The translations under genes and the position numbers were made by a program. Under the pieces are notes generated by a model, which worked only from the letters and a program-made list of their open reading frames with translations, was not told where the DNA came from and did no database searches. DNA of 64,000 bases, taken from a bacterium. Its GTDB lineage: Bacteria > UBA8248. The DNA is taken from assembly GCA_965207065.1 (NCBI GenBank), contig OZ242260.1:96001-160000 (forward strand). The letters run 5' to 3'. This document shows positions 1 through 29,772 of this stretch, piece by piece. How positions within the stretch are numbered: the first letter of the stretch is position 1; each line of letters starts with the position of its first letter.

Positions 1-644
1 GGGTCGTTATCGGCAGGAAGCGCTCCATCCGCGACTTCGACCTCGACAGCACTTCCCGTGTGCTTGACTGTCACGACATAATTTTCAGTCGCAGTAGGAG
101 CATCTAAATCCGTTGGAGCTGTGGTCAAATCAAATGGTCGGGCGGCCGTGGTGGCCGAATCTCCCTCCGTGTTGATGGCCGTTTTTTTCGTGAGGGCGAC
201 TTTGTTCGCGGCCGCCTTGGTCGCCGCGGCGGCGGCGGACGCATCAGCGGTGCTCTTCGCGGTCGTCACCATGCCGACATATTTCATTACGTCGGCGAGT
301 GCGGCTTCCGCGTCCGCCTGGGCGTCTTCCGCATGCGCCGTGTTGTCGGCCGCCTGGGCCGTGGCATTCGCGGCCATGGCGTCCGCTACCCTGAGTTCCG
401 CTTTCGCGTAGGATGCCTCATCGTACATTTTATTCGCTTCGACAGCGGCCAAGGCCGCCTGCGCGTCCTCATAAGCCTGCATGGCCGCGCTCTTCGCATC
501 TTGGAGCGACGTGTCCGGCGTCGTTCCCGGATCCGTCGTGTCGGCAGTCCCGCCGCCGCCGCCGCAGCCTGCCAGCGCGATGGCGAACACCGCCGCCAGG
601 GCAAAAGCGTAAAACTTGCTTATCGATTTCTCTCTGAACATCAT
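1..644 (-). CDS. Surface lipoprotein, family A copy 1 (A1); partial, runs off the left edge
   Basis: Not in the ORF track because the stop lies outside the window. Reads MMFREKSISKFYAFALAAVFAIALAGCGGGGGTADTT..., with a LAGC lipobox and GGAGG RBS. 583-700 matches 25728-25845 in inverted orientation with 1 mismatch. Confidence 0.85.
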   Translation of the reverse strand, partial: MMFREKSISKFYAFALAAVFAIALAGCGGGGGTADTTDPGTTPDTSLQDAKSAAMQAYEDAQAALAAVEANKMYDEASYAKAELRVADAMAANATAQAADNTAHAEDAQADAEAALADVMKYVGMVTTAKSTADASAAAAATKAAANKVALTKKTAINTEGDSATTAARPFDLTTAPTDLDAPTATENYVVTVKHTGSAVEVEVADGALPADND

Positions 645-1684
645 TTAGTGAGTCCTCCTGAATACATAGAAAAAGGGATTTTCAGCGAATTTCCGGCTTT
701 CTCTAAATCTCTAACATCCTCCTCTCCGTTGAATTCCATTATCAAACCCTGGTTTATCTTTATTAGCCGGAGAGCGGATACTACCGGGCTCGCCTTCCGG
801 ACTGTATGGGACACGATACCTTATTGGAAAAAAGTTGCTCAGCCGATTAAGCTTCCTGTTACGTTGAACCCGTCTCCTCTTCCGGGCGACGACCACTCCG
901 TTCGAGAACCCTTCCACCGGGCCGATGCAACCTCGATACCGACATGCCTTCCGGGTCGGCTGCAACGTTTGCCCCGAGGCGCCAATTCCCGATATAGTAC
1001 CCGCCTGTTCCGAACCTCATTAGCTGAGTATATCGTTCCCGGCGAGCAACCCCGCGCCAATCGCGCCTCTTGGATTCTATTACTACACTGATATTGCTAC
1101 AGCTTTTTCCGTTTTGTCAAGGTGATTTTCTCGCTAAATTCGGCCCTGGGTCAGAAGACCTCAATCGGTGGGCGGGCGAAACATAAAAACCATCACCTTA
1201 TTCACTATCGTTTATATGAATATGAAGTAAACTCCGGTCGATTGTCAAGTTATTCCCTTTGCCCGGCGGGCTATTGCCGAACCCGGCGTGCCGACCCTGT
1301 CTCATCAAACGTTTGCCCCTTGTCTCCTTCCGGCCTGCCATCGTTCCTGTGTCATTCGCTCCAGGGTAGCTCGGGCGACCGGGATACCCTCGGGTTTCTC
1401 CCCGCCCCGGAACGCAATCCCCCGGGCCCGCAGGCGTATGCCCGATGAGCGGAGCGCCGGAATAGCGGCGAATCGAGCGTTCCGAGCGGCATTTTTGCCG
1501 CGAGTTGCGTCGCCGCGCATACGGGGTGATGACGGAAAAACCCTCGGGGAGGCGAGCCGGCGATGGCGGGCCGCACCGGACCGGACGCGTGGGTCCCGAA
1601 GCGCCGAACCACAAAACCGGGAGGTTCCGGCAGCCCCGTTGACAGCATGATGATGAAGGCCGTTTTCCGGATCGAGTCCTCGAC

Positions 1685-1927: not shown

Positions 1928-2680
1928 CTGCTGCTGCGAGTTCCGTCATATCAGGCGCATGGGGGGTTGCGTCGTTGCGATATCGGCGTGGAGTCGAAGC
2001 GTATTATATATAGAGGAGGCGAACCCGACCGCGCCAGGGTCTGCCCTGGAGTCTGGTTGAAATTCATGAATTTTGCAGATTTTCAGGAAGACAGGCAAGG
2101 AACTTCATCACGGACATGGGTATGATGCGCATCTTGTTTACCATGGCGCCGGGCAATGTCCGGATATACGTATTCTCCTGACGACTCTCTCGCCGGTAAG
2201 GAACACAAAGCCGGGACTCCGATCGCGCAAGCAGCGCAGTCGGGAAATGAACGGAATGCCCGTTCAATATCCTTGCCGTTTCTCCCGCTCGGTGAATATC
2301 GATTCTTCTATGGGGAATGGGAACCATTACCACCAGGCGGGGGGAGAAGCCGAACGTATCCAACCGGAGCGTCGCAACTCATGGCCGGGGAAACGCCTTC
2401 ATCCCGAAAAAAGCGGCCCGCGACTTCATATCAGGCCGAACCGTACAATCGGTGACGGATGCCAGGCCAACCCGATGCATCGGCCGATACGGTGCGGAAG
2501 AAGCGGTGCGAGACCCGCAGCATGGCGGAGGGAGAAACATTACCTCAGATCAGGTTCGCTCAAAACGGGATTCGGCAAGTTGCGCCGAAAGAGTTGCGCA
2601 GACACGCATTCCTGCTAGAATCGCTCATTCCCCCGAGAAATACCCCGCCCTGGATGACCCGTAAAGAGACGGGAGAATCG

Positions 2681-4213
2681 ATGATGGCGACCGGATATTC
2701 CGGCGAGACCTGGAACACGAAGGAATTCTTCGAGCGCGCCGGCGCGGCGGATACTCTCCGCCGCCTGCAGGACGGAGACGATGTCAACGCGCGGGATGAA
2801 CGAGGATGGACGCCTCTTCACAGGGCGGCGGCGTTCGGCAGGACGCCCGGGGTCGTGACCGCGCTGGTCGAAGCCGGGGCCGACCCGAATGCGCGGGATG
2901 AAGACGGAGCGACTCCCCTGCACGCAGCGGCGCTCGGCGCGACTCCCGGTATCGTAACGGCTCTGGTTCAGGCCGGGGCCGAGCCGAACACAGCAGAAAA
3001 AACCGGATGGACTCCCCTGCACGCGGCGGCGCGGTTCAACGGAACCCCCGGGATCGTGACGGCCCTGGTGCGGAGCGGGGCCGACCCGGACGCTCGGTCC
3101 ATCAAGGGAGAGACGCCCCTGCACGAGGCGTCCGCCAACTGCAGGACTCCCGGGGTCGTGCTCGCGCTGCTGCGGGCCGGCGCCGACGCGCGCGCACGGA
3201 ACCAGGAGGGAATGACGCCTCTGCACCGCGCCGCTGACTCCGGCGCGATCCCCGGAGTCGTGACGGTACTGGTGCAGGCGGGCGCCGACGTGAACGCACG
3301 CTTTGACGGAGTGACCCCCCTGCACCGGGCGGCGGCGAACAGCGAAACCCCCGAGATAGCGGAGGCTCTCATCCGGGCGGGCGCCGACCCGCTGGCGCAG
3401 GATGAAACCGGCTGGACACCTCTCCACTGGGCGGCGGCGGGCGCGAAGGATCCCGGGATCGTTGCAGCGCTGCTCGATGCGGGGGCCGACGTGAACGCGC
3501 GCGCGTACGATGGGCAGACTCCCCTGTGCGTGGCGGCGCGGTTCTCCTCCGCCGTCGGGGTCGTGGCGGCCCTGGTGGAGGCGGGCGCCGACCCGAAAGG
3601 GGAAGATGAAAAAGGACGGACGGCTTTGCACCGCGCGGCGATGAACGGCGGTATCCCCGATGTGGCGTCGGTTCTCGTCCGGGCGGGCGCCGACCCGAAC
3701 GCCCGGGACAAAGCCGGTTGGACTCCGCTGCACCGGGCGGCGGCGGGCGGCAGGCATCCCGGGATTGTGGCGGCCCTCATCGAAGCAGGCGCCAATCCGA
3801 ATGCGCGTACCGGAGAGGGCGTGACTCCCCTGCACTGTGCGGCGGGCTCCGGCGCAACCCCCGGGGTCGTGACGGCCCTCATCGATGCCGGGGCCAACCC
3901 GAACGCCCGGGACAAGAGAGGATGGACGCCCCTGCATGATGCGGCGGGCGGCAGGACGCCCGGGGTCGTCACGGCCCTGGTCGAAGCCGGCGCCGCCCCG
4001 AACGCGCGGGACCGGAAAGGGCGCACGCCCCTGCACGTGGCGGCGTGTCTCGGCAAGGCCGTCCCTGCCGTCGCGCAGGCCCTGCTTGCCGCCGGCGCCG
4101 ACCCGGCGGCAAGGGACGAGGGCGATGAAACGCCCCGGGATCACGTCAGGATGGATTCTCCGCTCTGGGGAACGGAGGTTTTCCGGCGCCTGAAGGACGA
4201 ACGGCGTCCATAG
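2681..4213 (+). CDS. Ankyrin repeat protein (about 13 repeats)
   Basis: Repeated GxTPLHxAA...VVxALxxAGADPNARD units; start placed at ATG 2681 after GGAG. Confidence 0.93.
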   Translation: MMATGYSGETWNTKEFFERAGAADTLRRLQDGDDVNARDERGWTPLHRAAAFGRTPGVVTALVEAGADPNARDEDGATPLHAAALGATPGIVTALVQAGAEPNTAEKTGWTPLHAAARFNGTPGIVTALVRSGADPDARSIKGETPLHEASANCRTPGVVLALLRAGADARARNQEGMTPLHRAADSGAIPGVVTVLVQAGADVNARFDGVTPLHRAAANSETPEIAEALIRAGADPLAQDETGWTPLHWAAAGAKDPGIVAALLDAGADVNARAYDGQTPLCVAARFSSAVGVVAALVEAGADPKGEDEKGRTALHRAAMNGGIPDVASVLVRAGADPNARDKAGWTPLHRAAAGGRHPGIVAALIEAGANPNARTGEGVTPLHCAAGSGATPGVVTALIDAGANPNARDKRGWTPLHDAAGGRTPGVVTALVEAGAAPNARDRKGRTPLHVAACLGKAVPAVAQALLAAGADPAARDEGDETPRDHVRMDSPLWGTEVFRRLKDERRP

Positions 4214-8539: not shown

Positions 8540-9349
8540 ATGCGCATGATAATGAAATCCCGTCGGGTACACACCAAAGATTATATCAGAAACCTTCTCG
8601 CTAGCGGGAGCCATCACTTTACTTCAAGCGACGCTCGCGAAGCGCTTGGCGTGTCTCCGGACGCCGCCAAACTCGCCCTGAACCGACTGGCCCGGCAAAA
8701 TATGATCGCCCAACCCTCCCGGGGCTTCTACGTAATCGTTCCTCCGGAATACCTCTCTCTGGAGTGTCTGCCGGCGGACCAATTTATCCCGGCGCTGATG
8801 GAGCGCCTAGGGCAAACCTACTATTCAGGTTTGCTTTCAGCCGCGCAATACCACGGCGCGGCCCATCACCGGCCCCAGGAATTCCAGGTGCTGCTACACA
8901 AAGCCCGTCGGCCGATCCGCTGCGGCCGGGTGCGCGTGGTCTTCATCGTCCGCAAGCATCTTCGGAACGTACCTGCAAAAAATTTCAACACGCCCCGTGG
9001 CACGATTCGGGTCTCGACGCCAGAAGCGACGGCCGTCGATCTCGTCGGCTATTCTCACCATGCAGGTGGACTCGACCAGGTGGCGACCGTTCTCTCCGAA
9101 CTCGCAGTGCAGATCGATCCGGAGAAACTGGTGACGGCCGCGCAGACCGCGCCGATCACCTGGGCGCAAAGACTTGGATACCTGCTCACGTTCGTCAATG
9201 CCCGCGAACGGATCGTCCCTCTGAAGGACTATGTCAGGAGAGAAGCCCGGAGAACGGTTCCGCTTCTCCCCGGCGCATCAAGTGAAGAAGCGCCTCGCGA
9301 TGCGGACTGGAAGCTCTTCGTAAACACGGACGTAGAGCCGGACCTGTGA
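8540..9349 (+). CDS. abiEi: Type IV TA antitoxin, AbiEi family
   Basis: RGFYVIVPPEY, YYSGLLSAAQYHGAAH..PQEFQV, STPEATAVDLV; overlaps the downstream nucleotidyltransferase gene. Confidence 0.88.
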   Translation: MRMIMKSRRVHTKDYIRNLLASGSHHFTSSDAREALGVSPDAAKLALNRLARQNMIAQPSRGFYVIVPPEYLSLECLPADQFIPALMERLGQTYYSGLLSAAQYHGAAHHRPQEFQVLLHKARRPIRCGRVRVVFIVRKHLRNVPAKNFNTPRGTIRVSTPEATAVDLVGYSHHAGGLDQVATVLSELAVQIDPEKLVTAAQTAPITWAQRLGYLLTFVNARERIVPLKDYVRREARRTVPLLPGASSEEAPRDADWKLFVNTDVEPDL

Positions 9350-10185
9350 TCCCGCGCGACTATATCACCGAGTGGCGGGCGCAGGCGCCATGGGTGCAGG
9401 ATTTCCAAGTCGAGCAAGACCTCGTCATCAGCCGGGCTTTGATCGCGATTTTCAATCACCCGATCCTGGGAGAAGCGCTGGCCTTCCGGGGAGGTACGGC
9501 GCTCTACAAACTCCACATTCATCCCCCGGCCCGCTATTCGGAGGACATCGACCTCGTACAGGTCAGGACCGAACCGGCCGGGCCGATGATGGGAGCGGTT
9601 CGAGAAGCCCTCGATCCATGGCTCGGGAAACCGCAATACAAACAGACCAAAGGACGCGTGACATTCAATTACCGCTTTCAGTCCGAGGATGCGCCGCCCC
9701 TTCCGCTGCGGCTGAAAGTGGAAATCAATTCACGGGAACACTTTGCGGTTTACGGATTCACTCGGCTGCCCCTTACCGTGTCTTCGCGCTGGTTCGAGGG
9801 TAGTTGCGCGATCACCACGTATACGCTCGAGGAGTTGCTGGCCACCAAGCTGCGCGCCCTCTACCAGCGTCGTAAAGGCCGGGATCTTTTCGATCTTGCG
9901 GTCGCGCTCGAAACAGGAGCGCTCGACCCGGATCGGGTCGTCGCCGCGTTTGTGAAGTATATGGAGCGAGACGGCCACGAAGTGATGAGAGCCCTGTTTG
10001 AGCAGAACCTCCAGGCGAAACTGCGCGACCCGCAGTTCAACGCCGATATCGGCCCGCTTCTGGCGACCGGATTTTCCTGGGACGCCGATCAAGCTGCGGC
10101 AATCGTCCGCTCCAGACTGCTTGCGCGATTGCCGGGCGAGCCATGGCAGGGCGGCAAAGAGAACAAGGGAAACACGGAGGAGTAA
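9346..10185 (+). CDS. abiEii: Type IV TA toxin, AbiEii nucleotidyltransferase
   Basis: VEQDLVISR, FRGGTAL, RYSEDIDL, KLRAL..R.KGRDLFDL. Confidence 0.9.
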   Translation: MIPRDYITEWRAQAPWVQDFQVEQDLVISRALIAIFNHPILGEALAFRGGTALYKLHIHPPARYSEDIDLVQVRTEPAGPMMGAVREALDPWLGKPQYKQTKGRVTFNYRFQSEDAPPLPLRLKVEINSREHFAVYGFTRLPLTVSSRWFEGSCAITTYTLEELLATKLRALYQRRKGRDLFDLAVALETGALDPDRVVAAFVKYMERDGHEVMRALFEQNLQAKLRDPQFNADIGPLLATGFSWDADQAAAIVRSRLLARLPGEPWQGGKENKGNTEE

Positions 10186-11811: not shown

Positions 11812-12490
11812 AATCCTCGTGTTGACATGAATGCCGCATGCCGGATTGTGTTTTCTGCCTCTCGTGAAAATCTCACCCTGTATCCGGAATGAACGGGCGG
11901 TCTCGATTGCCACGCTCGAATGACGACACTCCCCCCGGGCGTCCGTCCGCTCACGCCGTGACGGCGGTTACAGGCTGGCCACGGCTTCGTACGCCGTCCC
12001 GACGGGACGGGCCCGGCGCGTTGTTTTCGGGACCATTCAAGTCGACAGAAGAGCCTGGCGCTTCGAGTGCATGAACGGAATAATAATATCCACTTTTTCT
12101 CGTAGAAGACAACAAAATCATCTGCATCTGGTTGGTGGTGAGGCCCACTTCGTCGCCTCCGCCGACGGCCGACAGCAGCGCGAAGGGGTGTGCAAAATTT
12201 GCAATGCATCCGATATCTTTTTGATTACGGGCTTTAAAATGTAGATTTCACGCCATAATATAACAATTATAACGAGATAAATATCAACTAGATATAAGAA
12301 TTCAACGCTATTCCAAAAGAGTCCTCCATCTAAAAAGCCGGAAATTCGCAGGAAAATCCCTTTTTCTATGTAATCAGGAGGACTCACTAAATGATGTTCA
12401 AAGAGAAATCGATAAGCAAGCTTTACGCTTATGCCCTGGCGGCGGTGTTCGCGCTGACGCTGGCCGGCTGCGGCGGCGGCGGCGGAACGG
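11812..12490 (+). repeat. Conserved upstream block, leader and signal-peptide region of A2 (paralog of about 25258-25885)
   Basis: Colinear similarity by eye, e.g. GGATTGTGTTTTCTGCCTCTCG and GATAAATATCAACTAGATATAAGAATTCAACGCTATTCCAAAAGAGTCCTCC occur in both copies. Confidence 0.85.
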
Positions 12491-14076
12491 CCGCCGTTGA
12501 AGAAGAGACGCCCGCCATGCCGACACAGCAGGAAATGTGTGAGGGTGACGGCGGTCGGTATAACGCGGACGGTTCATGCTCCTCTGCCGCGGAAGTTGCC
12601 GAAGAAGGCGCCCTGAGCGATGCGCAGGAAGCCGCCATGATGGCCTATATGAAGGCCAAGGATTATGTAGAAAGCGCGGTGGACCCTGTGGCGATGTCGA
12701 ACGCGTACAAATACGCGGCGATGGCCAAGGAATCTTCCGACGCGGCGGAGATGGCCACGACTTCCGCAATGGCCATGACTCACCAGACAGCGGCCGAGAA
12801 GTACCGTGACATGGCGATGGAAGCTTCCATGATGGACGGCCTGGGAATTACCATGCTCGCGAACAGGCAGTTGAACAAAGCGCCAGAAGATTTGCAGGAA
12901 CAGCCTGACCCGCCGAAACCCATCACGAATGTAAGAAATGTCCACGCCGAGATAAATACTGTTTCTCAGACTACGACTCCGAACAGCGACGGGGCTACCG
13001 TACCTACGGTCGCGGTAACTTACGCCGCAACGGCAACTAAACCAACCTTTACAATTACCGACTATGAGGCTGGCGAATCACCAAAGAGTTTCTCGATGGG
13101 AAGCTTCATGGGAACCGAATTGGTGAACATTGAGACTGATGTAGGTGGAGTGGCCGGAAGAACGAATGTCGTTCTTTATTCAGACAGGGCGCAAACTGAA
13201 TCTGTAACCAATTATGCCGATAGCGGAGACGATTTCGTTGATGTCGGCGCTCTGGTGGGTGGCGCAAATCATGTAACCTCACTGTCAGAGGGACAGATTT
13301 CAGGAGCGATGGGAGATAAGGTAGAGGGCACATATAATACGGATTCGAAAGACAATAACCCGGCTGTATCGGGCGCCTTCTACTGTTCTATGACTCTATG
13401 CACCTTGAACGTAAATTCCAAAGGAATGATAACCGCAAACGTCGGCTATCAATTCCGTCCGGAATCCGGCAAGACAACAAAAGATGATACAAGCTATCTC
13501 ACCTTGGGCTTCTGGCTTACCGCTCCCACCGCCTTGACTGCGGAAGGGGCGGCGCCTGGCGGTATCGTGGCAGGCGCTTTTGGGATGGGGCAAGGAACTG
13601 CTGTTGAAATACCGGCCGCGTTAGAAGAAACGGCCACCTATGAAGGTATCGCTACCGGCCTGTATGCAACAAAGGACGGTATCAGCTATTTCAGTGGCGA
13701 CGCCATGCTCGAGGCTAACTTTGGACAGGTAAAGGACCTGGCTGATGATGCTGATGATACTACCGCTGGTTTCCGGGGAAGTGTAAGCGGAAGCATTTCG
13801 AACATCACTGCTGGTGGAATGAAGATGGAAGGTGAGCTCGGCTTGTCTGCTGCGAATATAGCCGGTGATACAACTGGCACATATTCCGGAAATACAAAAG
13901 GCAGCGTAGGAGACAGCAGGTTTGTTGGAAGCTGGAGAGGAACATTCTATGAAGCAGGAAGAGCGACCACTCCAGCCGATTCAAGGTATCCGATGTCTAC
14001 GGCTGGAACGTTCAGCGGTTATGATGAATTCAACAACTCCAGCATCTTGGGCGCTTTCGGCGCGAACAAGCAGTAG
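12391..14076 (+). CDS. Surface lipoprotein family A copy 2 (A2), TbpB-like C-terminal barrel
   Basis: LAGC lipobox plus Gly linker, Ala/Met-rich helical segment, YLTLGFWL, ATYEGIATGLY, GSWRGTFY, C-terminal ILGAFGA. Confidence 0.85.
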   Translation: MMFKEKSISKLYAYALAAVFALTLAGCGGGGGTAAVEEETPAMPTQQEMCEGDGGRYNADGSCSSAAEVAEEGALSDAQEAAMMAYMKAKDYVESAVDPVAMSNAYKYAAMAKESSDAAEMATTSAMAMTHQTAAEKYRDMAMEASMMDGLGITMLANRQLNKAPEDLQEQPDPPKPITNVRNVHAEINTVSQTTTPNSDGATVPTVAVTYAATATKPTFTITDYEAGESPKSFSMGSFMGTELVNIETDVGGVAGRTNVVLYSDRAQTESVTNYADSGDDFVDVGALVGGANHVTSLSEGQISGAMGDKVEGTYNTDSKDNNPAVSGAFYCSMTLCTLNVNSKGMITANVGYQFRPESGKTTKDDTSYLTLGFWLTAPTALTAEGAAPGGIVAGAFGMGQGTAVEIPAALEETATYEGIATGLYATKDGISYFSGDAMLEANFGQVKDLADDADDTTAGFRGSVSGSISNITAGGMKMEGELGLSAANIAGDTTGTYSGNTKGSVGDSRFVGSWRGTFYEAGRATTPADSRYPMSTAGTFSGYDEFNNSSILGAFGANKQ

Positions 14077-14216: not shown

Positions 14217-15923
14217 GTGATGAAAATGCTCAGATATTCAGGATTGGCGGTACTTGTCGTGTGCATTGCGGCATTTGCCTCCGGTTGCGGCGGTGGCGGT
14301 GGCGGCGGTACTGCGGATGATATGACGACGGTGATGGAATGCCCGCAGGGCAAGATCGGCACGTACCCGGACTGCATGGATCCGCCAAAGACCGATGCTG
14401 ACAGGATAGCCGACGCGAGACGGGAACTTTCAATTATCCTTACGAATGCCCGGGCACGAGCGGGGGCGGCGAGTTCGGCCGCGGCCGCGATACGGACCAA
14501 TGCCGACGCCACGCCCGCTCAAATCACGGACGCCAACAGCGAGAGTAATACGGCGCAAAGCGCCCTGGCGCGTATCGTGAGCGCGAATACTGCGGCAACC
14601 CTGGCCACTACGCCGGCGGAGGCGAATACGGCGCTTACGGACGCGAGAGCGGCTCAAGTCACTCTCAACACATCCGCATCGGCAATATCCAGGATTCAGG
14701 GCGCCGTGCAAGCGGCCGCGAACCGTCGCAGACAACAGGCAGCGAACGAGGCCGTCTTGACGGGCGGGTCCTCGCTCATCAAGCACTTGAGGGACAACAG
14801 GAAAGTATCCGATGCGGTTCTGAGTGGACTAGCGGCCACTTCCCTCGTGGGGGGGGCAACAGGTTCTACTACAGGCACCGCCACTTATCCGTACCACAAA
14901 GGTGACCCCGCAACGCAATATCCAACCCCCAGGAATACAGATAGAGGCGTGCTGGGAGTAACGGTATCGGTCGGTACGACGCCCGTATCGTCGAATAGCC
15001 AGACGGGCAAAATCTCCGGGTCAGGGCGTCTCTCTAAAGGCTTCGACCTGAAAGACGGCGGTAGATTCGCCACTGTCTACACGGATATTACGGTAGACAC
15101 AAGGGTAAGGCAAAAAGATGGGAATACCGCCACAGATACTGCCACAGAGGACACTACTGTAGGGGATACTGACGACGGTATAGACCAGCGGTATCAGTAC
15201 GTCGCCGACGATGATTATCTGCTCGCCGGAATCTGGCTCGATGATGCAACTGCCAGCACTTCCACCCTGATGGCATTTGGGTTCGGGAGTCAGGCTCTAG
15301 CCGCGACTCACGATTTCTGCACCGCTGCTGATGTAACTAACACTACTTCGCTGTCTAGGGCGTGCGGTAATGCGACCGGTAGAAACTTTAACGAGATAGC
15401 CGGATTCGTTGACGAAAATGAGAGCACGGAAGCAACTTACCGCGGGGGTGTGAACGGCGCGTATTTCGCCGGCGGAAAGGCCAGCCATTTCAAGGCGAAT
15501 GTATCGCTCACGGCTACATTTGTGCGCGGAACCGGGACAGATGCTACGGGCAGCAAGATTTCAGGAGAAATCACGGGCATCAGCGCCGGTGGAAGTTCCG
15601 TCACGGGAAGCATTGATTTGAAGGAACAGGCGCTTGGAAATGACATCAGCGGCGCTTTTGGAACTGATGGGGCCGGTGGTGATGCCGCTGGCGTAATAGA
15701 GGGTCACGCCTATACCGGCAGCTGGAAGGGCCAGTTCTTCGGAATGAGAGCCAGGAAACTGACTCCCGTTACAACCGGAACAGTTGCTAATAACGATCGA
15801 ACAACAACGACAACCTACACCCCGGACAAGCCTGGTTCTGTTGCAGGCTCGTTTTACGTCAACAGACAGACGGTTGGCGAAGGAAACGCCGCCTTCATCG
15901 GGGCGTTCGGGGCGCACAGGTAA
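14217..15923 (+). CDS. Surface lipoprotein family B copy 1 (B1), TbpB-like C-terminal barrel
   Basis: ASGC lipobox plus poly-Gly, CPQG..GTYPDC, DYLLAGIWL, ATYRGGVNGAY, GSWKGQFFG, FIGAFGA. Confidence 0.85.
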   Translation: MMKMLRYSGLAVLVVCIAAFASGCGGGGGGGTADDMTTVMECPQGKIGTYPDCMDPPKTDADRIADARRELSIILTNARARAGAASSAAAAIRTNADATPAQITDANSESNTAQSALARIVSANTAATLATTPAEANTALTDARAAQVTLNTSASAISRIQGAVQAAANRRRQQAANEAVLTGGSSLIKHLRDNRKVSDAVLSGLAATSLVGGATGSTTGTATYPYHKGDPATQYPTPRNTDRGVLGVTVSVGTTPVSSNSQTGKISGSGRLSKGFDLKDGGRFATVYTDITVDTRVRQKDGNTATDTATEDTTVGDTDDGIDQRYQYVADDDYLLAGIWLDDATASTSTLMAFGFGSQALAATHDFCTAADVTNTTSLSRACGNATGRNFNEIAGFVDENESTEATYRGGVNGAYFAGGKASHFKANVSLTATFVRGTGTDATGSKISGEITGISAGGSSVTGSIDLKEQALGNDISGAFGTDGAGGDAAGVIEGHAYTGSWKGQFFGMRARKLTPVTTGTVANNDRTTTTTYTPDKPGSVAGSFYVNRQTVGEGNAAFIGAFGAHR

Positions 15924-15990
15924 CGAAGAAAAACGCCTCAGACCCCCGGGTGTAAGCTCCCAGGCCTGAGCGAAAGAAGGAGAGCGAAAA

Positions 15991-16093
15991 GGGGGTTGCC
16001 CGTTGGTTGCTTCCCTCGTGATGAAGCAAACTGTACCGTTCCTCGTCATGAGTTTGAGTCCTCGGACCGGGAACGGGAGTAACGGGCAGCCCC
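15991..16093 (+). ncRNA. Putative three-way-junction structured RNA, copy 1 (C4-antisense-like architecture)
   Basis: Closing stem GGGGTTGCCCGTT/AACGGGCAGCCCC, two internal stems, compensatory changes versus the copies at 20755 and 29375. Confidence 0.7.
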
Positions 16094-16133
16094 TGTTCTT
16101 CTTATACGCGATTCGTAAGTGCTTGATATATGA

Positions 16134-16193
16134 GAAAAAGGGACCTCCCTCTCTCCCAGGATCGACTGAAATTGAGAGAGGGCGGTCCCTTTC
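16134..16193. terminator. Probable bidirectional terminator-like hairpin (paralog about 29519-29582)
   Basis: AAAAAGGGACCTCCCTCTCTC...GAGAGAGGGCGGTCCCTTTCTT; stem retained in the second copy. Confidence 0.55.
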
Positions 16194-16755
16194 TTATGTG
16201 GACATCTATCAAGTTATGCGGTCGATGTAGATGCAGGAGTTTTCCGTTCTGGCTACCGTTCTTCGGTGCCGCGTATGCCTTTTCTTGTTCGTGCCTGCCT
16301 GTCGCAAGAGCACGAAAAACCTCCTGGCGGGTTTTCGCATCCCTTACCTCCAGGGAGCATATCATCGCACCATTTGATTCATGGTTTCGAAGCCGACCCT
16401 CTTGAATCGATGAATTTGAAATCAGGCAATTACTGATTCATGTTCCCGCCTTCGTGGGGATGAAGCGGGGAAGCCTGACGATGGATTCACCCGTAAACCC
16501 CACCAAGAAAGCAAATAAAGCTGTTTTCGCCGGGAGGCGATGGCGCACCCGGCGTTCCGGCCCCCCCGGTATCCGGTTCCGGCGGAAAACGCATGGCCTT
16601 GATCGCACGCCTGCGCGCGTCTGTCGTAAAACCGTCGAAATTCCGTTTTCTATCTGGTTGAAATCCTCATATATTCGTCATCCAGGACCACGGGAGCGCC
16701 GGCTGGAAATCCCCGGCGCCGCTCCCGCGACACGCAAGATGGGGAGAGCGACTCT

Positions 16756-20497: not shown

Positions 20498-20754
20498 GGT
20501 TTGCTGAAGAATCGGGATAGGGAATGGTTCGTATTCAGGTTCAGGCGGTTTGGCTCACACCGGGGACATGGTGGAATTTGTGCTTGCCACGGGCATCCAG
20601 AGGGTTCTCCAGAGAGCGGCAGGCTGTTAACGGTTGCCTTGATTACATGGACAAAGAAAACTAAATCGTTCTTTAAAATCTACCATCAAGGCGCTGCAAT
20701 GGAAGCAAGGATAGACGCCCTTTAAAAAAAGTAACTGCTTCCGAAAGGTTATTA

Positions 20755-20861
20755 GGGGTTGTCCGTTGGTTGCCTCTACATCGTCGGGAGGTAAATTGTA
20801 CCGTTTTCCTGGTTAAGAGTTTGAGTCCTCTCACCGGGAATCGGGAACAACGGGCAACCCC
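20755..20861 (+). ncRNA. Putative structured RNA, orphan copy
   Basis: Same fold and invariant GAGTTTGAGTCCTC as 15991 and 29375; followed by ACTTTTT. Confidence 0.7.
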
Positions 20862-21061
20862 ACTTTTTGTAGCCGCTTTATAGGAAACCCTCCTGCCAGG
20901 GCGACCTTGAGGAGAAGCGGTGAGTCGCATGTTGAGATCGTCGAACGGCTGCAAATAGGAAAGCTGAACCATTACAAAAAAGGCCTGCTCAAAAAGATCG
21001 AAGATCGCGGAGGCAGTAGCAAGGATCTGATCGAAGCACTCCTCTACAAGCTGTGGCACTC

Positions 21062-25023: not shown

Positions 25024-25783
25024 GAGCCTGTTGGGCGATTTTTCGCACCTTTCGGCTTCTATTACGAAGCACTTCCACTGCTTCGGCGTGACCCTGATGT
25101 TCTTTTGTATTGATTGGCCATCGGTTTTTGGCTTATCCTTTTGTGAAGTTTATCACGCTGATTGGTCTCCAATCGGGCTTAATAATTTCGCTGGCATCGG
25201 GCGCACTACGTTTGGAGCGCATACATCCCCAAAATGCCTCCTGAATTTCTTCCTGTCGAATCCTCGCGCCGGTATGAACCCCGCATGGCGGATTGTGTTT
25301 TCTGCCTCTCGCGAAAATCTCATTCTGAATACGGAATGAACGGGCGGCCATCATTACCACGCCCGAATGACGACACTCCCCAGTCTTCCGTCCACTCATG
25401 CCGTGACGGCGGCGACAGGCTGACGGCGCCATTCAATTCGAAAGAAGATACGGGCGCTTTGGGTATATGAACGGCTCTGCAAGATCGATTTTTTCTCGTA
25501 GACGGCAACAAAATCATCCGCATCTGATTAGCGGTGAAACCCGCTTCGTCGCGCCCACCTCTCCGACACAGGCGCGACAGGACGCGCAGAATTTGTAATG
25601 AATCCGCTATCTTTTTGATTACGGGCTTTAAAATGCAGATTTAACGCCATAATCAAAGAATTATAACTAGATAAATATCAACTAGATATAAGAATTCAAC
25701 GCTATTCCAAAAGAGTCCTCCATCTAAAAAGCCGGAAATTCGCTGAAAATCCCTTTTTCTATGTATTCAGGAGGACTCACTAA

Positions 25784-27526
25784 ATGATGTTCAGAGAGAA
25801 ATCGATAAGCAAGCTTTACGCTTTTGCCCTGGCGGCGGTGTTCGCGCTGACGCTGGCCGGCTGCGGCGGCGGCGGCGGAACGGCCGTGATGGAAGAAGAG
25901 ATGCCGATGCCGATGCCTGACCCGCAGGCGGATTGCATGGATGCCGGCGGCCGGTATAACGCGGACGGTTCCTGCACCTCCGCTGAGGACGTAGCCGAAG
26001 AAGGCGCCCTGAGCGACGCGCAGGACGCGGCCGCGGCGGCGGCAGCGGCTGCGATGATGGCCGTGGGCGGCGCGGTGGACCCCGTGGCGGCGCATAACGC
26101 GTACGGTTACGCGAAAATGGCAGCGGATGCCAACACGGCGGCGCAGGCGGCCACGACTTCCGCAGACGCCATGGGTCACCAGATGGCGGCCGAGACGGCC
26201 CAAGGCAAGGCGATGATGGCGGCTGGCATGCGCGGTCTGGGAATCACCAAGGAGGCGAACGCGATCACCAACCAGGCCGATATCGACAATGCCATTCTCG
26301 AGGGCCAGGATCCCGACGATCCCGATTCCAACGCGACAAGAGTGGGTACGGAGTTGGCCGCGACGGCTGCTGAAGAAGCCGCGCGGACTACAGTTGCAGA
26401 TAGTGGTCCTGGAAGCGTTTCTCAAGGCGCGCCGGCCACAAGTACAACGGTTACTTACGGCGCCAGTGGACCTACGTTCAAGGTAACCGGACCCGGAACC
26501 ACTTTGCAGCTGGGCGAATCTCCGGTAGGCGTGCTGACGACCCGCGGCGGCTGGAAGGGCAGGGAACTGGTGGAGAACGCCGCTTCCGACACTTACGTCA
26601 TGGCCTTCACGGACATCCAGGCGCCCACGATGAGGCAGAATTATGGAGATGCCACTACTGGTACAGAAGGCAATGAGGCCGAATTGGGAATAGGCCATAT
26701 CATCACCGGCGATATTCCGGGAGACGGCTCCACTTTCACGGGAACGCGTAACGTTTCCGCTACGGACAACATCCCGACACAGATGGGGCAGTTCAACTGC
26801 CCTGAAGCAGCCTCAGCAACCGGTTGTTCCATCAGCGTTGACGAAGACGGCGCAATCGTGTCGGTTCAGGGCTACGTGTGGCGGCCTCAGACATCCGGCA
26901 CGACCCCCGCGACCGACGCCGACTACCTGGCCTGGGGCGTCTGGCTGACGGTTCCGGACGGCACGGATGACTCGGACGTGGCCTTGGCAGGCGCATTCGC
27001 GAGCGGCAACGACGTGTTCACGGTCGATGCCGATCTCAAAGGCACGGCGACATATAACGGCGTAGCGAGCGGCCTGTATTCGGCGGCCGGCATGGTCGAA
27101 TACTTCGACGCGGACGTCACCCTGAATGCCAACTTCGGCGGAACCGTAGGTGCTGATTCCGATCCAGATACTGATGGCAACGACGGGGTGCTCATAGGCG
27201 CCGTCACCGGCACCGTCTCCAACATCAAGGCCGGCGGAATGGACATCGACGGTATGCTGACGCTGAAGAGAGCGCCCGTCATCGCTGGCGCACAGGACGG
27301 CGACAGCACGACCGGCTTCGGCGGCGACACCTCCGGTTCCCTGGCGGGCAGGGCAGTGTCGGGTGAATGGGGCGGCCAGTTCTACGGTCCCAACGACGCG
27401 AGCGGCAAGGGAGTCGAGACCGAATACCCCACGACCGCCGCGGGCACCTTCGGTGCGGCAGCGCCGGGTGTTGGCAGTGACATGGTCAGAATTCTGGGCG
27501 CCTTCGGCACGTGGAAGGCTGAGTAA
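25784..27526 (+). CDS. Surface lipoprotein family A copy 3 (A3), TbpB-like C-terminal barrel
   Basis: Signal peptide nearly identical to A1/A2; DYLAWGVWL, GTATYNGVASGLY, GEWGGQFYG, ILGAFG. Confidence 0.87.
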   Translation: MMFREKSISKLYAFALAAVFALTLAGCGGGGGTAVMEEEMPMPMPDPQADCMDAGGRYNADGSCTSAEDVAEEGALSDAQDAAAAAAAAAMMAVGGAVDPVAAHNAYGYAKMAADANTAAQAATTSADAMGHQMAAETAQGKAMMAAGMRGLGITKEANAITNQADIDNAILEGQDPDDPDSNATRVGTELAATAAEEAARTTVADSGPGSVSQGAPATSTTVTYGASGPTFKVTGPGTTLQLGESPVGVLTTRGGWKGRELVENAASDTYVMAFTDIQAPTMRQNYGDATTGTEGNEAELGIGHIITGDIPGDGSTFTGTRNVSATDNIPTQMGQFNCPEAASATGCSISVDEDGAIVSVQGYVWRPQTSGTTPATDADYLAWGVWLTVPDGTDDSDVALAGAFASGNDVFTVDADLKGTATYNGVASGLYSAAGMVEYFDADVTLNANFGGTVGADSDPDTDGNDGVLIGAVTGTVSNIKAGGMDIDGMLTLKRAPVIAGAQDGDSTTGFGGDTSGSLAGRAVSGEWGGQFYGPNDASGKGVETEYPTTAAGTFGAAAPGVGSDMVRILGAFGTWKAE

Positions 27527-27660: not shown

Positions 27661-29310
27661 GTGATGAAAATGCTCAGATATTCAGGATTGGCGGTACTTG
27701 TCGTGTGCATTGCGGCATTTGCCTCCGGTTGCGGCGGTGGCGGTGGCGGCGGCGGTACTGCGGATGAAGAGATGACGCCGGTGATGGAATGCCCGCAGGG
27801 GCAGATAGGGACGTACCCGGACTGCATGGACCCGCCGCCGACTGATGAGGAAAGAATAGAAGCGGCGCAGGATAGGCTCGCCGGCATCGTGGCCGACGCC
27901 CGGACGCGAGTGGGGTCGGCGCAATCGGATGCGAACGCCGTGCAGGGCCACGCGGACGCCACGGAAGCGCAGAAGACGAACGCCGGCAATCTCGGCAACG
28001 CCGCGCGGGACGCCCTGACGGATATTTTAGGCGCGACAGCCGCGGCGAACGTGGCCACCACGGGGGCGCAGGCGGAAGCCGCGGTTTCGGACGCGCAGAC
28101 GGCGCTGAACGACCTGATAAGCGCGCAGCAATCGGTGGCGAACATCCTGAGCGCCGTGAATGCGATTGCGAACCTTCGCCAACAACAGGAACAGGACGAG
28201 CGCCTCGCGACGAACGGTTCCGGGCTTATCGAGCACGTGAGAGCCAACAAGATCGTCTATGACGCCATTCTGGCAGCCATGACGGCGGATGCTGCGGTCA
28301 ACATGACTGTTGGTGAGACTGGTAATACAGATAATATGGCTGAATACCCCAGGGATACCGGGACGGGCGCGGACAGAGTCGTTGGAGAGCGTGGAGTTAC
28401 CGTAAAAGCCCTTTCATCGAACAGCACGACGCCGAAACTCAGCGGAACGAGCCGCCTTCCTAACGGCTTCGACCTGAAAAACGATACCAACACCCTCTTC
28501 GTAAACGCCTACACGGACATTACGAAAACGAGGGCTGATGTAAGAATGAGAACGGATGTCCTGACAGACACTGATTTAAGTGATGGCGATGATAGGTATA
28601 CTACAGAAGATGTGGCCGACACAGACTATCTGGTGGCTGGAATCTGGCTCGAGAATAGGGCAATCCATGCATTCGCGTATGGGAGCCAACCGATTCCCAC
28701 TAGCAGTCAAAACTTCTGTACCGGTATTGAAAATGTAAATGACCCACAGGGTGGAACAGGTAATACCAGAAATTGCGGTGATACAGGAACTTTACACAAT
28801 ATCACCGATTTCGTCGCGGAAGACAAAGACATGACGGCCACCTACCGGGGGGATGCGAACGGCGCCTACCTCGCGGACGGCAATATGAGCTATTTCGAGG
28901 CGGACGTTACGCTTACCGCCGAGTTCCAGAATGCAGCCAATACGGGCTCTGGCAGTATCTCTGGCGCAGTCACGAACATCGTCGCCGCCGGAAAATCCAT
29001 CGCGGGGAGCGTCGAATTACAGGAACATTCCTTTACAGATGGTACTATCAATACCGCTTTCGGGGGTGATGCCGTCGGCGTGGTTGACGGCAAATCCTTC
29101 AGCGGAGATTGGGAAGGCCAGTTCTTCGGAATGAGAACCAGAAGGTCCACGAAAACGGAAACGATTATGGACAATGATCCAGAAAGAACGGTTACGACGA
29201 CGTACTCGGCCGAGGCGCCCGATGCAGTGGCGGGAACCTTTTACGCCACGCAGCAGAGCAACCCGGCGGGAAGCGCCGCCTTGATCGGGGCGTTCGGTGC
29301 GAAGAGGTAG
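27661..29310 (+). CDS. Surface lipoprotein family B copy 2 (B2)
   Basis: First about 55 aa nearly identical to B1; DYLVAGIWL, ATYRGDANGAY, GDWEGQFFG, LIGAFGA. Confidence 0.87.
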   Translation: MMKMLRYSGLAVLVVCIAAFASGCGGGGGGGGTADEEMTPVMECPQGQIGTYPDCMDPPPTDEERIEAAQDRLAGIVADARTRVGSAQSDANAVQGHADATEAQKTNAGNLGNAARDALTDILGATAAANVATTGAQAEAAVSDAQTALNDLISAQQSVANILSAVNAIANLRQQQEQDERLATNGSGLIEHVRANKIVYDAILAAMTADAAVNMTVGETGNTDNMAEYPRDTGTGADRVVGERGVTVKALSSNSTTPKLSGTSRLPNGFDLKNDTNTLFVNAYTDITKTRADVRMRTDVLTDTDLSDGDDRYTTEDVADTDYLVAGIWLENRAIHAFAYGSQPIPTSSQNFCTGIENVNDPQGGTGNTRNCGDTGTLHNITDFVAEDKDMTATYRGDANGAYLADGNMSYFEADVTLTAEFQNAANTGSGSISGAVTNIVAAGKSIAGSVELQEHSFTDGTINTAFGGDAVGVVDGKSFSGDWEGQFFGMRTRRSTKTETIMDNDPERTVTTTYSAEAPDAVAGTFYATQQSNPAGSAALIGAFGAKR

Positions 29311-29374
29311 AAGAGCATGACGCCTCACCCGGGGTTAAGCCCCGAGGCCTGAGGCGGTAAAAGGAGAGCGAAAA

Positions 29375-29477
29375 GGGGGTTGCCCGTTGGTTGCTTCCCT
29401 CGTGATAGAGCAAACTGTACCGGTCCTTGCTATGAGTTTGAGTCCTCGAGCCGGGAACGGGAACAATGGGCAACCCC
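29375..29477 (+). ncRNA. Putative structured RNA, copy downstream of B2
   Basis: Same fold with compensatory changes; same position relative to the B gene as copy 1. Confidence 0.7.
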
Positions 29478-29772
29478 TGCTCTTCTTATACGCCATTTCC
29501 GGCGTAGATGGCAAACGAGAAAAAGGGACTGCCCCCCTCTTCCGGCGATGCGGTAATTGAGAGGGAGGGCGGTCCCTTTTTTCGTGCGGGGATGTTTTGA
29601 GGGGGGGGTGGCGCGGCAAACACTTCCTCCTCGGGGTTGTTAAAAAAGGCCTTACGGATCACGCCAAACCATTCTCCCCATGCAGAGTCCCCCCAACAAC
29701 CACTCCCCCCTTGAGGGTTCTTGTCGTCTGACGAGAGAGGAAATCACTCCCCTTTGCAGAGCGCTCAACAAC

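Follow-up and report, generated by a model that had tools for sequence, protein, structure and literature searches.

A family of structured RNAs at the 3' end of multiplied lipoprotein operons, with loops complementary to ribosome-binding sites

Results

Two lipoprotein operons and three copies of a structured RNA

The DNA analysed here is a stretch of 64,000 nt (the window; genome coordinates are window coordinates + 96000) of GenBank assembly GCA_965207065.1, from a bacterium of the UBA8248 lineage whose genome is a single contig of 4.48 Mb with a G+C content of 59.5%. The window contains three copies of a structured RNA of ~105 nt, two of which lie behind operons of two lipoprotein genes, designated A and B. 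In operon 1, gene A (12391..14076, + strand) encodes a 561-aa lipoprotein with a TbpB-like C-terminal domain and gene B (14217..15923, + strand) a 568-aa lipoprotein; RNA copy 1 (15991-16094, + strand) begins 68 nt past the B stop codon. Operon 2 consists of A at 25784..27526 (+ strand, 580 aa) and B at 27661..29310 (+ strand, 549 aa), and is followed by RNA copy 3 (29375-29478, + strand), which begins 65 nt past the stop. Copy 2 (20755-20861, + strand) has no lipoprotein gene upstream. Another A-type gene, the third, extends beyond the edge of the window (3-644, - strand), and its RNA copy is situated outside the window, at genome 94755-94867.

The space between the B stop codon and copy 1 is occupied by a hairpin without a U-tail (15935..15971, + strand), followed by a purine-rich linker (15972-15990). 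About 40 nt 3' of the RNA there is a long G+C-rich hairpin with A- and T-runs on its flanks (16132..16197), which is likely to be a two-way terminator of the operon, and a similar terminator-type hairpin lies 3' of copy 3 at ~29521-29583.

Fold and strand of the RNA

Each of the three window copies is predicted to fold as a three-way junction, in which a closing stem of 14-15 pairs (P1) is combined with a short hairpin with a loop of 9-11 nt (P2), a conserved single-stranded linker, and a long hairpin (P3) topped by a small apical helix and an 8-nt loop. The P2 loop of copy 1 is 11 nt long and C-rich, and the P3 apex of this copy contains the 9-mer TGAGTCCTC at 16055-16063. The P2 and P3 loops, both C-rich, resemble each other (CCUC in both). 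Copy 2 has the same P3 apex as copy 1 together with a different P2 loop. When aligned, the three copies show a mean column identity of 86%; their minimum free energies (MFE) are -54.9, -54.4 and -48.8 kcal/mol for copies 1, 2 and 3 respectively, with z of -5.5, -5.4 and -3.3 relative to dinucleotide shuffles. The covariance model scores them at 131.6, 102.4 and 128.7 bits, with model bounds of 15988-16100, 20751-20868 and 29372-29484.

For each window copy the + strand gives a better fold than the - strand, and the genome copies score 65-135 bits in the forward direction, against ~20-26 bits for the reverse strand of the same sites. G-U pairs, which would be A-C on the opposite strand, are frequent in the stems. 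Together these features fix the RNA strand as the one that is sense to the neighbouring operon. A pyrimidine-rich tail lies 3' of the RNA and is flagged as terminator-like by a scan. A sequence-only reading of the window had described these three copies as three-way junctions, had named compensatory changes in P2 and P3 and had favoured the + strand; folding and a check of the sequences bear out the junctions, the strand preference is as it proposed, and the named changes are present, with RNAalifold finding a double change in 10 of the 36 pairs in nine copies from the host genome.

Covariation and subtypes

We built a first covariance model from nine genome copies and a second from 76 matches. 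The covariation set comprised 76 matches (68 distinct rows) from 17 genomes, the sequences being related and the alignment being fitted to the model. Standard pairs were formed in 95.4% of the cells, as compared with 39-60% when the 3' partner was slid by 1-3 columns, and a double change was found in 28 of the 36 pairs; the observed values were reached by none of 500 shuffles. All four helices contribute to the covariation, including the small apical helix, and the pair types are varied, e.g. GC, AU and GU at one pair and GC, AU, UA and CG at another. Even with these caveats on the alignment, the slid-partner control and the many pair types leave little doubt that the structure is selected: the covariation is clearly more than chance would give.

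The copies fall into four subtypes. Subtype I, to which window copies 1 and 3 belong, follows the A-B operons and has a C-rich P2 loop of one kind. Subtype II, represented by window copy 2 and by a copy at a diverged operon at genome 3.99 Mb, has a P2 loop unlike that of subtype I and the same apex. Subtype III is 109 nt long and stands alone at one locus, with a P2 loop like that of subtype I and a changed apex; the 16 relatives' loci that were fetched each contain one. Subtype IV is the tandem partner upstream of subtype III in many genomes, and again has a P2 loop like that of subtype I, with other apex loops. Copies of subtypes I and II, in which the stems vary, do not differ in their apex, and this apex is kept in a distant relative from another family (genome G047), in which the stems differ. 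The apex had been described as invariant, which applies to subtypes I and II and fails for III and IV. The bases of the junction and linker are kept across subtypes.

Some relatives have tandem arrays of 2-3 RNA copies ~180 nt apart (G006:C7:478167-478648; G004:C3:1933114-1933408; G014:C4:790917-791214; G018:C200:9576-9865), and in front of every copy is a non-coding piece left over from the 3' end of a lipoprotein gene. The stand-alone subtype III locus of the host genome has two further conserved features. Upstream of the RNA is a non-coding stretch of ~270 nt (host genome ~1626165-1626440; ~1100-1370 of locus L020), kept in L075-L079, with a promoter-like start (read by eye) and a terminator-like end; Rfam gives nothing for it at E up to 0.01, and it may represent another RNA of unknown kind. 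Between this stretch and subtype III lies a conserved perfect palindrome with 5-nt arms and a 4-nt spacer (L020 ~1396-1424, host genome ~1626465-1626493), which overlaps the sole promoter-like match there, on the opposite strand, and may be an operator.

Range, copy number and novelty

The element had been taken to have three copies. The first model found 10 forward-strand copies in the host genome, of which seven belong to cassettes within ~145 kb around the genome coordinate origin, in both orientations. In a set of 101 genomes the same model detected the RNA in 16 of the 22 further members of the genus; the 78 genomes of other genera gave no match. The second model gave 5-18 matches per genome in those 16 relatives, i.e. 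roughly a hundred forward-strand matches in the genus. When it was applied to the whole order, 17 of the 44 genomes were positive, all from one genus, with nothing in the 20 genomes of the order outside it, and in a sample of the phylum 18 of the 51 genomes had a match, the sole addition being the 41.7-bit match in G047.

No Rfam family reached its gathering score anywhere in the window. When the threshold was relaxed to E up to 10 for 15900-16200, no match to C4 or a related family appeared, and the only matches were chance hairpin matches on the neighbouring terminator; at E up to 0.01 nothing was found on the stand-alone locus. ARAGORN reported no tRNA or tmRNA gene in the window, and a plasmid collection and 50,697 phage records contained no similar DNA. 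In the full text of the papers searched, the 14-nt apex string occurred in no paper, whether written as DNA or as RNA, and 9-mers appeared just as chance occurrences in unrelated papers. Hammerhead and other self-cleaving cores, the L2-L3 kissing aptamer and a tRNA-like T-arm were considered and set aside, since the junction and loop sequences misfit by eye and Rfam is silent. An integron attC site or an inversion site was likewise rejected: the conserved end bases are in the wrong order, the leader boxes are permuted in the RNA and do not form an inverted repeat, and there is no integrase among the open reading frames (ORFs) scanned. The RNA is thus a new family of structured RNA that is absent from the databases and confined to a small uncultivated lineage.

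Placement behind lipoprotein genes

Eight of the 10 host-genome copies lie behind a lipoprotein gene on the same strand, seven of them after A-B operons and one after a single gene with an A-type leader. A tblastn search of the host genome with the C-terminal domains returned 18 loci, and the RNA was present 62-94 nt downstream of seven out of seven B-type genes, none of seven A-type genes and none of four singleton barrel genes. The RNA lies past the stop codon, on the coding strand and with no terminator in between (the intervening hairpin having no U-tail), which is the position of a 3' untranslated region (3'-UTR). The copies keep to one type of lipoprotein gene end, and do not show the dispersal of miniature inverted-repeat transposable elements (MITE), repetitive extragenic palindromes (REP) or enterobacterial repetitive intergenic consensus (ERIC) repeats.

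The same holds in the relatives, where nearly all of the subtype I and II copies that we printed follow a gene end of the same C-terminal type; for a few of these copies the 110 nt shown do not reach any gene end. The layout consists of the conserved C-terminal motif, a hairpin without a U-tail (sometimes absent), a purine-rich linker, the RNA and the pyrimidine-rich tail, and in the host genome is closed by the strong two-way terminator hairpin. Even upstream of the stand-alone subtypes III and IV there are non-coding remnants of the same lipoprotein gene end, and the G047 copy is found ~280 nt past a lipoprotein gene with the same C-terminal motif. Conversely, five genomes of the genus that have no RNA were searched for A; four gave no match and one a weak match at 33%. 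The RNA is therefore linked to one multiplied family of surface-lipoprotein operons, at whose 3' end it lies. Directly upstream of the lipoprotein gene that precedes the G047 copy there is an ORF with zinc-ribbon-like cysteine pairs (L179 1070-2041), which we presume to be reminiscent of a transposase of the insertion sequence (IS) families.

Products of genes A and B

The proteins A and B gave no match in Pfam at E up to 0.01 and none in sequence searches against the PDB. They have a common C-terminal domain (27% identity, E 2e-9), and a language-model search gave a weak pointer to TbpB-like clusters (0.88-0.90). An AlphaFold model of B, made with 8 aligned paralogues, is of middling quality, with a mean predicted local distance difference test score (pLDDT) of 59.6, a confident N-terminal helical bundle and a fairly confident C-terminal 8-strand barrel. 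The barrel matches the C-barrel of fHbp with Z 11.8 (root-mean-square deviation (rmsd) 2.5 Å over 115 residues), NHBA with Z 11.7 and the C-lobe of TbpB with Z 11.6, at identities of 16-20%; unrelated 8-strand membrane barrels reach equal Z at 6-10% identity, and the Foldseek E-values for the barrel are just 0.02-0.15. Lipobox-like N-termini are shown by the family consensus and by three paralogues encoded at other sites of the host genome. A and B are therefore probably, although this is not proven, surface lipoproteins of the TbpB/fHbp kind. The best structural match of residues 58-169 of the B model (window 14388-14723) is a trypanosome surface protein (Z 13.2, rmsd 1.6 Å, 111 residues); this helical-bundle score may merely reflect a common arrangement.

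Complementarity between the loops and the leaders

As the sequence-only reading had pointed out, reverse-complementing the apex 9-mer yields exactly the Shine-Dalgarno (SD) box that all three A genes of the window have, at 12378..12386 (+ strand) in operon 1, 25771..25779 (+ strand) in operon 2 and 649..657 (- strand) before the third A-type gene. The match between an anti-SD motif in the 3'-UTR and the SD box of the same mRNA is present in the operons of copies 1 and 3 and in five further cassettes of the host genome. Across that genome, the SD 9-mer is found upstream of seven A-type genes that are intact, in one further A-type leader whose reading frame differs, and before three more genes whose leaders are otherwise different; the unlike leaders that share it are those of the subtype I A genes, of the A gene in the subtype II operon, and of the genes at 599412 (lipoprotein), 1865486 (autotransporter-like) and 1343296 (dioxygenase-like). 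In the A-type leaders of relatives it was found in 10 of 11 cases, and the C-to-T change in the eleventh retains a G-U pair. The bases of the SD box past GGAGG do not extend the complement of the 16S 3' end, which is ordinary here.

Several leader classes have, a few bases 5' of the SD box, a second box to which the P2 loop is complementary; in these classes the matches extend over 9-13 nt for the P3 apex and 7-10 nt for the P2 loop. Each of the two P2 loop types has a matching leader class. The subtype I loop matches, over 9-10 nt, the repeated short-ORF modules upstream of the subtype II operon, and the subtype II loop matches, over 8 nt, the leader of the lipoprotein gene at genome 599412, a leader class that is kept in most RNA-bearing genomes. 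The bipartite module (TCACGA, 1-11 nt, SD 9-mer) occurs 67 times in 14 of the 23 genomes of the genus and not at all in six genus genomes without the RNA, and a reversed control gave no match; as the pattern demands that both boxes are intact, it cannot show whether their conservation exceeds that of the spacer. In the host genome TCACGA does not behave as a general word of leaders (48 seen, 31.8 expected). The strongest single match (12-13 nt + 7-8 nt) precedes the dioxygenase-like gene at 1343296. A duplex-energy ranking of 5,256 crude start sites placed this gene 5th and A of the subtype II operon 7th. Co-folding of the RNA with the leaders gave 0 kcal/mol for most pairs, a result that is uninformative because the program cannot represent pairing between a loop and a strand.

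Structures within the leaders

Five A leaders of the host genome contain an internal anti-SD box ~50 nt upstream that is nearly equal to the RNA apex. In operon 1 this box (12319..12327, + strand) has the same sense as the apex. It is predicted to pair with the SD box, with z of -2.7 to -3.0 for these leaders; the A leaders of relatives have other sequence at this position. The short-ORF modules are hairpins whose 5' arm carries both boxes and whose 3' arm lies within the 11-12-codon frame, which is open in some modules; the 3' arm has 7 nt in common with the P2 loop. The loops of the RNA look like copies of the sequestering arms of the leaders, as would be expected of a competitor or of a reinforcer.

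The leader of the subtype II operon is itself ~800 nt long (host genome 3991574-3992410, - strand, outside the window). Its start looks promoter-like by eye, and within it 1-4 modules of ~60 nt are arranged in tandem; such modules are also seen in L098-L102, L127, L132 and L135. Each module is a hairpin with an SD box and an 11-12-codon frame that specifies a conserved peptide; some modules have no start codon and have kept the sequence. The array looks like an array of translation-coupled attenuators. At 599412-599671 (- strand) the leader and first codons of the gene for a 529-aa lipoprotein are duplicated in tandem, the upstream copy forming a 45-codon frame, and this tandem pair is present in most RNA-bearing genomes.

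Other features of the window

Positions 1-33000 of the window form a poorly annotated island, in which Pfam, at the thresholds applied, assigned no family to 19 of the 26 scanned ORFs, and core metabolic genes start at ~33.5 kb. Between the lipoprotein cassettes there is an AbiEi antitoxin and AbiEii toxin pair (8540-10185, + strand) of the type IV toxin-antitoxin/abortive infection kind. A 584-aa protein consisting almost entirely of ankyrin repeats, which is unusual for a bacterium, is encoded at 2459-4213 (+ strand).

Discussion

A possible riboregulator of the lipoprotein family

The reading that we favour, and to which we give about an even chance, is that the RNA regulates the lipoprotein family by base-pairing, either in cis or in trans, and in doing so covers the ribosome-binding sites (RBSs) of its genes. 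The operon would be transcribed through the tail-less hairpin and the purine-rich linker into the RNA, which would then either remain on the mRNA or be cut off as a small RNA. Its exposed C-rich, anti-SD-like loops would pair with the leaders, the P3 apex with the extended SD box of A-type genes and the P2 loop, in several leader classes, with the second box a few bases upstream. With both loops covering the RBS, translation of the multiplied gene family would be reduced. The outcome could be feedback within one mRNA, the 3' end acting on the 5' end, or, in trans, control of dosage over all paralogous operons together with a small number of other genes. The data show the structure of the RNA, its strand, its copy number, its constant position behind the lipoprotein genes, and the complementarities with their distribution; that it is transcribed, processed and paired in the cell, in which direction it acts, and that it acts in trans are inferred. 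As the majority of copies belong to the 3'-UTR of an operon with a matching leader of its own, the pairing may equally well take place inside a single mRNA. The sequence-only reading had added that expression of the A genes might be mutually exclusive, a suggestion that has no basis in these data: neither the apex nor the SD box differs between paralogous operons, which leaves the RNA no means of telling its own operon from the others.

Several observations weigh against regulation by pairing. In the host genome the 9-mer is seen 43 times as against ~35 expected, and complements of 10, 11 and 12 nt of the apex occur 121, 27 and 7 times as against 111, 25.6 and 5.9 expected, i.e. at chance level. 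By a crude criterion, 12 of the 43 occurrences lie before start codons, one of them being the reverse strand of the RNA itself; an unrelated word of GAGGA plus four bases does so in a comparable share of cases (roughly a quarter). The 9-mer match taken alone is therefore weak, because any SD word plus four bases often precedes start codons; it gains weight from the persistence of the box within otherwise unlike leaders, from the second box that matches P2, and from the leader class that corresponds to each P2 loop type. The predicted fold places 3-4 bases of the 9-mer in the small apical helix, outside the loop. The subtype I A leaders are complementary to the apex alone and not to P2, the operon at genome 2574680 does not have the 9-mer, and the 4.6-kb G047 locus contains no piece of it of at least 7 nt, its gene having an ordinary SD. 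The match of the 1343296 type recurs in one of 14 homologous gene copies in relatives, and that of a candidate subtype III target (genome 775025) is not in the leader of the sole alignable homologue. In the duplex-energy ranking, two subtype I A genes come near 26th place, with many false ORFs higher. Before two stand-alone copies we found no sigma-70-like promoter on the RNA strand, although this consensus may not be that of the lineage. Among public RNA sequencing runs, none was listed as containing the sequence. The leaders and the RNA are inherited with the gene family, so that their co-occurrence across genomes is not independent evidence. Finally, pairing in cis within the leaders alone could explain the conservation of the boxes without any RNA acting in trans.

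A more elaborate form of regulation by pairing would be a network that spans the genus. Every lipoprotein cassette would export its own copy of the RNA, and these sibling 3'-UTR RNAs would carry a two-loop 'address', of which the apex would read the shared SD box and the exchangeable P2 loop a class-specific box. The cassette classes would then repress each other, and would also repress the short-ORF hairpin leaders by out-competing their sequestering arms; the network would in this way be a modular RNA code for the composition of a variable coat of surface lipoproteins. We consider this extension unlikely, at roughly one chance in five.

Alternative explanations

The position of the RNA, fixed at 62-94 nt past the stop codon, would also suit a 3'-end module that stabilises, terminates or processes the mRNA and in which the complementarities of the loops have no function. 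The closing stem, which is very stable, and the junction would then shield the lipoprotein mRNA against 3' exonucleases or mark a site of processing or termination. A closing stem of 14-15 pairs, an MFE of down to about -55 kcal/mol and a pyrimidine-rich terminator-like tail followed by a further strong hairpin all fit such a module, as does the finding that complements of the apex are no more frequent in the genome than expected by chance. A plain barrier, however, needs neither a three-way junction nor loops and a linker that are invariant amid changing stems, and it leaves unexplained the stand-alone subtype III locus (16 relatives' loci), the bipartite leader module and the two pairs of loop and leader; we regard this explanation as doubtful. 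The conservation of junction and linker bases across subtypes, the similarity of the two C-rich loops and the link to secreted lipoproteins only could be accounted for if loops and junction formed a surface for binding a protein or a ligand without any pairing, e.g. in a decoy for a regulator, a signal for localising the mRNA at the membrane or a ligand fold. Against this, no candidate partner gene travels along with the RNA, no RNA-binding family is present in the 28 window ORFs scanned, and a protein is not expected to bind a sequence and also its complement in the leaders. We think such a role less probable than that of a 3'-end module.

An explanation at the level of DNA, in which the element is a palindromic or mobile repeat, or an anchor of homology for recombination between lipoprotein cassettes with the leader as the other anchor, draws on the high copy number (up to 18 matches per genome), the clustering of seven copies within ~145 kb, a closing stem that can be read as terminal inverted repeats, and tandem partial duplications both of the gene 3' end with the RNA and of the leader with the gene 5' end. 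It is improbable in view of the strand asymmetry, with its many G-U pairs, and the compensatory changes in three helices, which point to selection on RNA. In addition, the copies are not scattered in unrelated contexts, their subtypes track operon clades, no recombinase or transposase family lies beside the window copies among the ORFs scanned, and no plasmid or phage match was obtained. A short protein-coding gene, i.e. a TTG-initiated frame running through the subtype I copies, was suggested by an SD-like purine run before the element and an open frame of ~28 codons in copy 1; as this frame ends after ~11 codons in copy 2 and continues past the element in copy 3, as subtype III copies differ in frame and in the presence of a start codon, and as the substitutions compensate pairing and not coding, we give this explanation almost no weight.

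If the pairing is real, regulation of the RBSs by this RNA would provide a clear example, in a bacterium, of feedback from a structured element in the 3'-UTR onto the RBS of its own multiplied operon family. It would unite 5'-3' UTR pairing and small RNAs born from 3'-UTRs, which are so far known mainly from single genes, and would explain how about eight paralogous operons for surface lipoproteins are kept in balance. As a new family the RNA is well supported, whichever function it has, and is ready for a curated model.

Comparison with known systems

ERIC elements (also called intergenic repeat units, IRU) and Correia elements are transcribed intergenic palindromic repeats that are scattered among unrelated genes. 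The RNA described here shares with them a multi-copy nature, a size in the range of ~100-150 nt, inverted ends, a presumed co-transcription at the 3' ends of genes and a possible effect on mRNA stability; it differs from them in belonging to one gene family, and in its helix-by-helix compensatory change with strand asymmetry. Closer in arrangement are the small RNAs (sRNAs) that derive from 3'-UTRs or pair with SD sequences through C-rich loops, such as CpxQ and the UCCC-loop sRNAs of Staphylococcus. As in these sRNAs, the element is located at the 3' end of an mRNA, has a stem and a pyrimidine-rich tail, and has C-rich loops complementary to G-rich ribosome-binding sites; unlike them, it has up to 18 matches per genome that are associated with one gene family, and its predicted main target is the parent operon family.

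The C4 RNA acts by a two-loop mechanism, its loops being complementary to two boxes at the RBS of the target. The present element is likewise a small structured RNA within the transcription unit of its predicted target, with two loops that are complementary to two RBS boxes in several leader classes, and the analogy with C4 that was drawn in the sequence-only reading is apt in this respect, P2 being the second complementary loop. It does not extend to kinship: the C4 antisense RNA of phages P1 and P7 (PMC8201110) is represented by the Rfam C4 family, and our RNA gave no match to it, even at E up to 10. Furthermore, there is no phage or immunity context, with no phage family among the 28 window ORFs and no match in the phage records, and the RNA is a three-way junction of ~105 nt that lies downstream of its predicted target genes and not upstream.

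In Staphylococcus aureus, the icaR mRNA pairs with itself, its 3'-UTR binding to its own SD region (PMC3868564). Pairing of this type blocks initiation and creates a substrate for RNase III. The likeness consists of a C-rich anti-SD motif in a 3'-UTR that is complementary to the SD of its own mRNA, with a block of initiation as the expected outcome. Our RNA, which is known from sequence alone, is unrelated in sequence to icaR. The icaR motif lies in a long unstructured UTR, whereas the motif described here is borne by a discrete, covarying three-way junction that has a second complementary loop, lies behind about 8 paralogous operons and also occurs in stand-alone copies.

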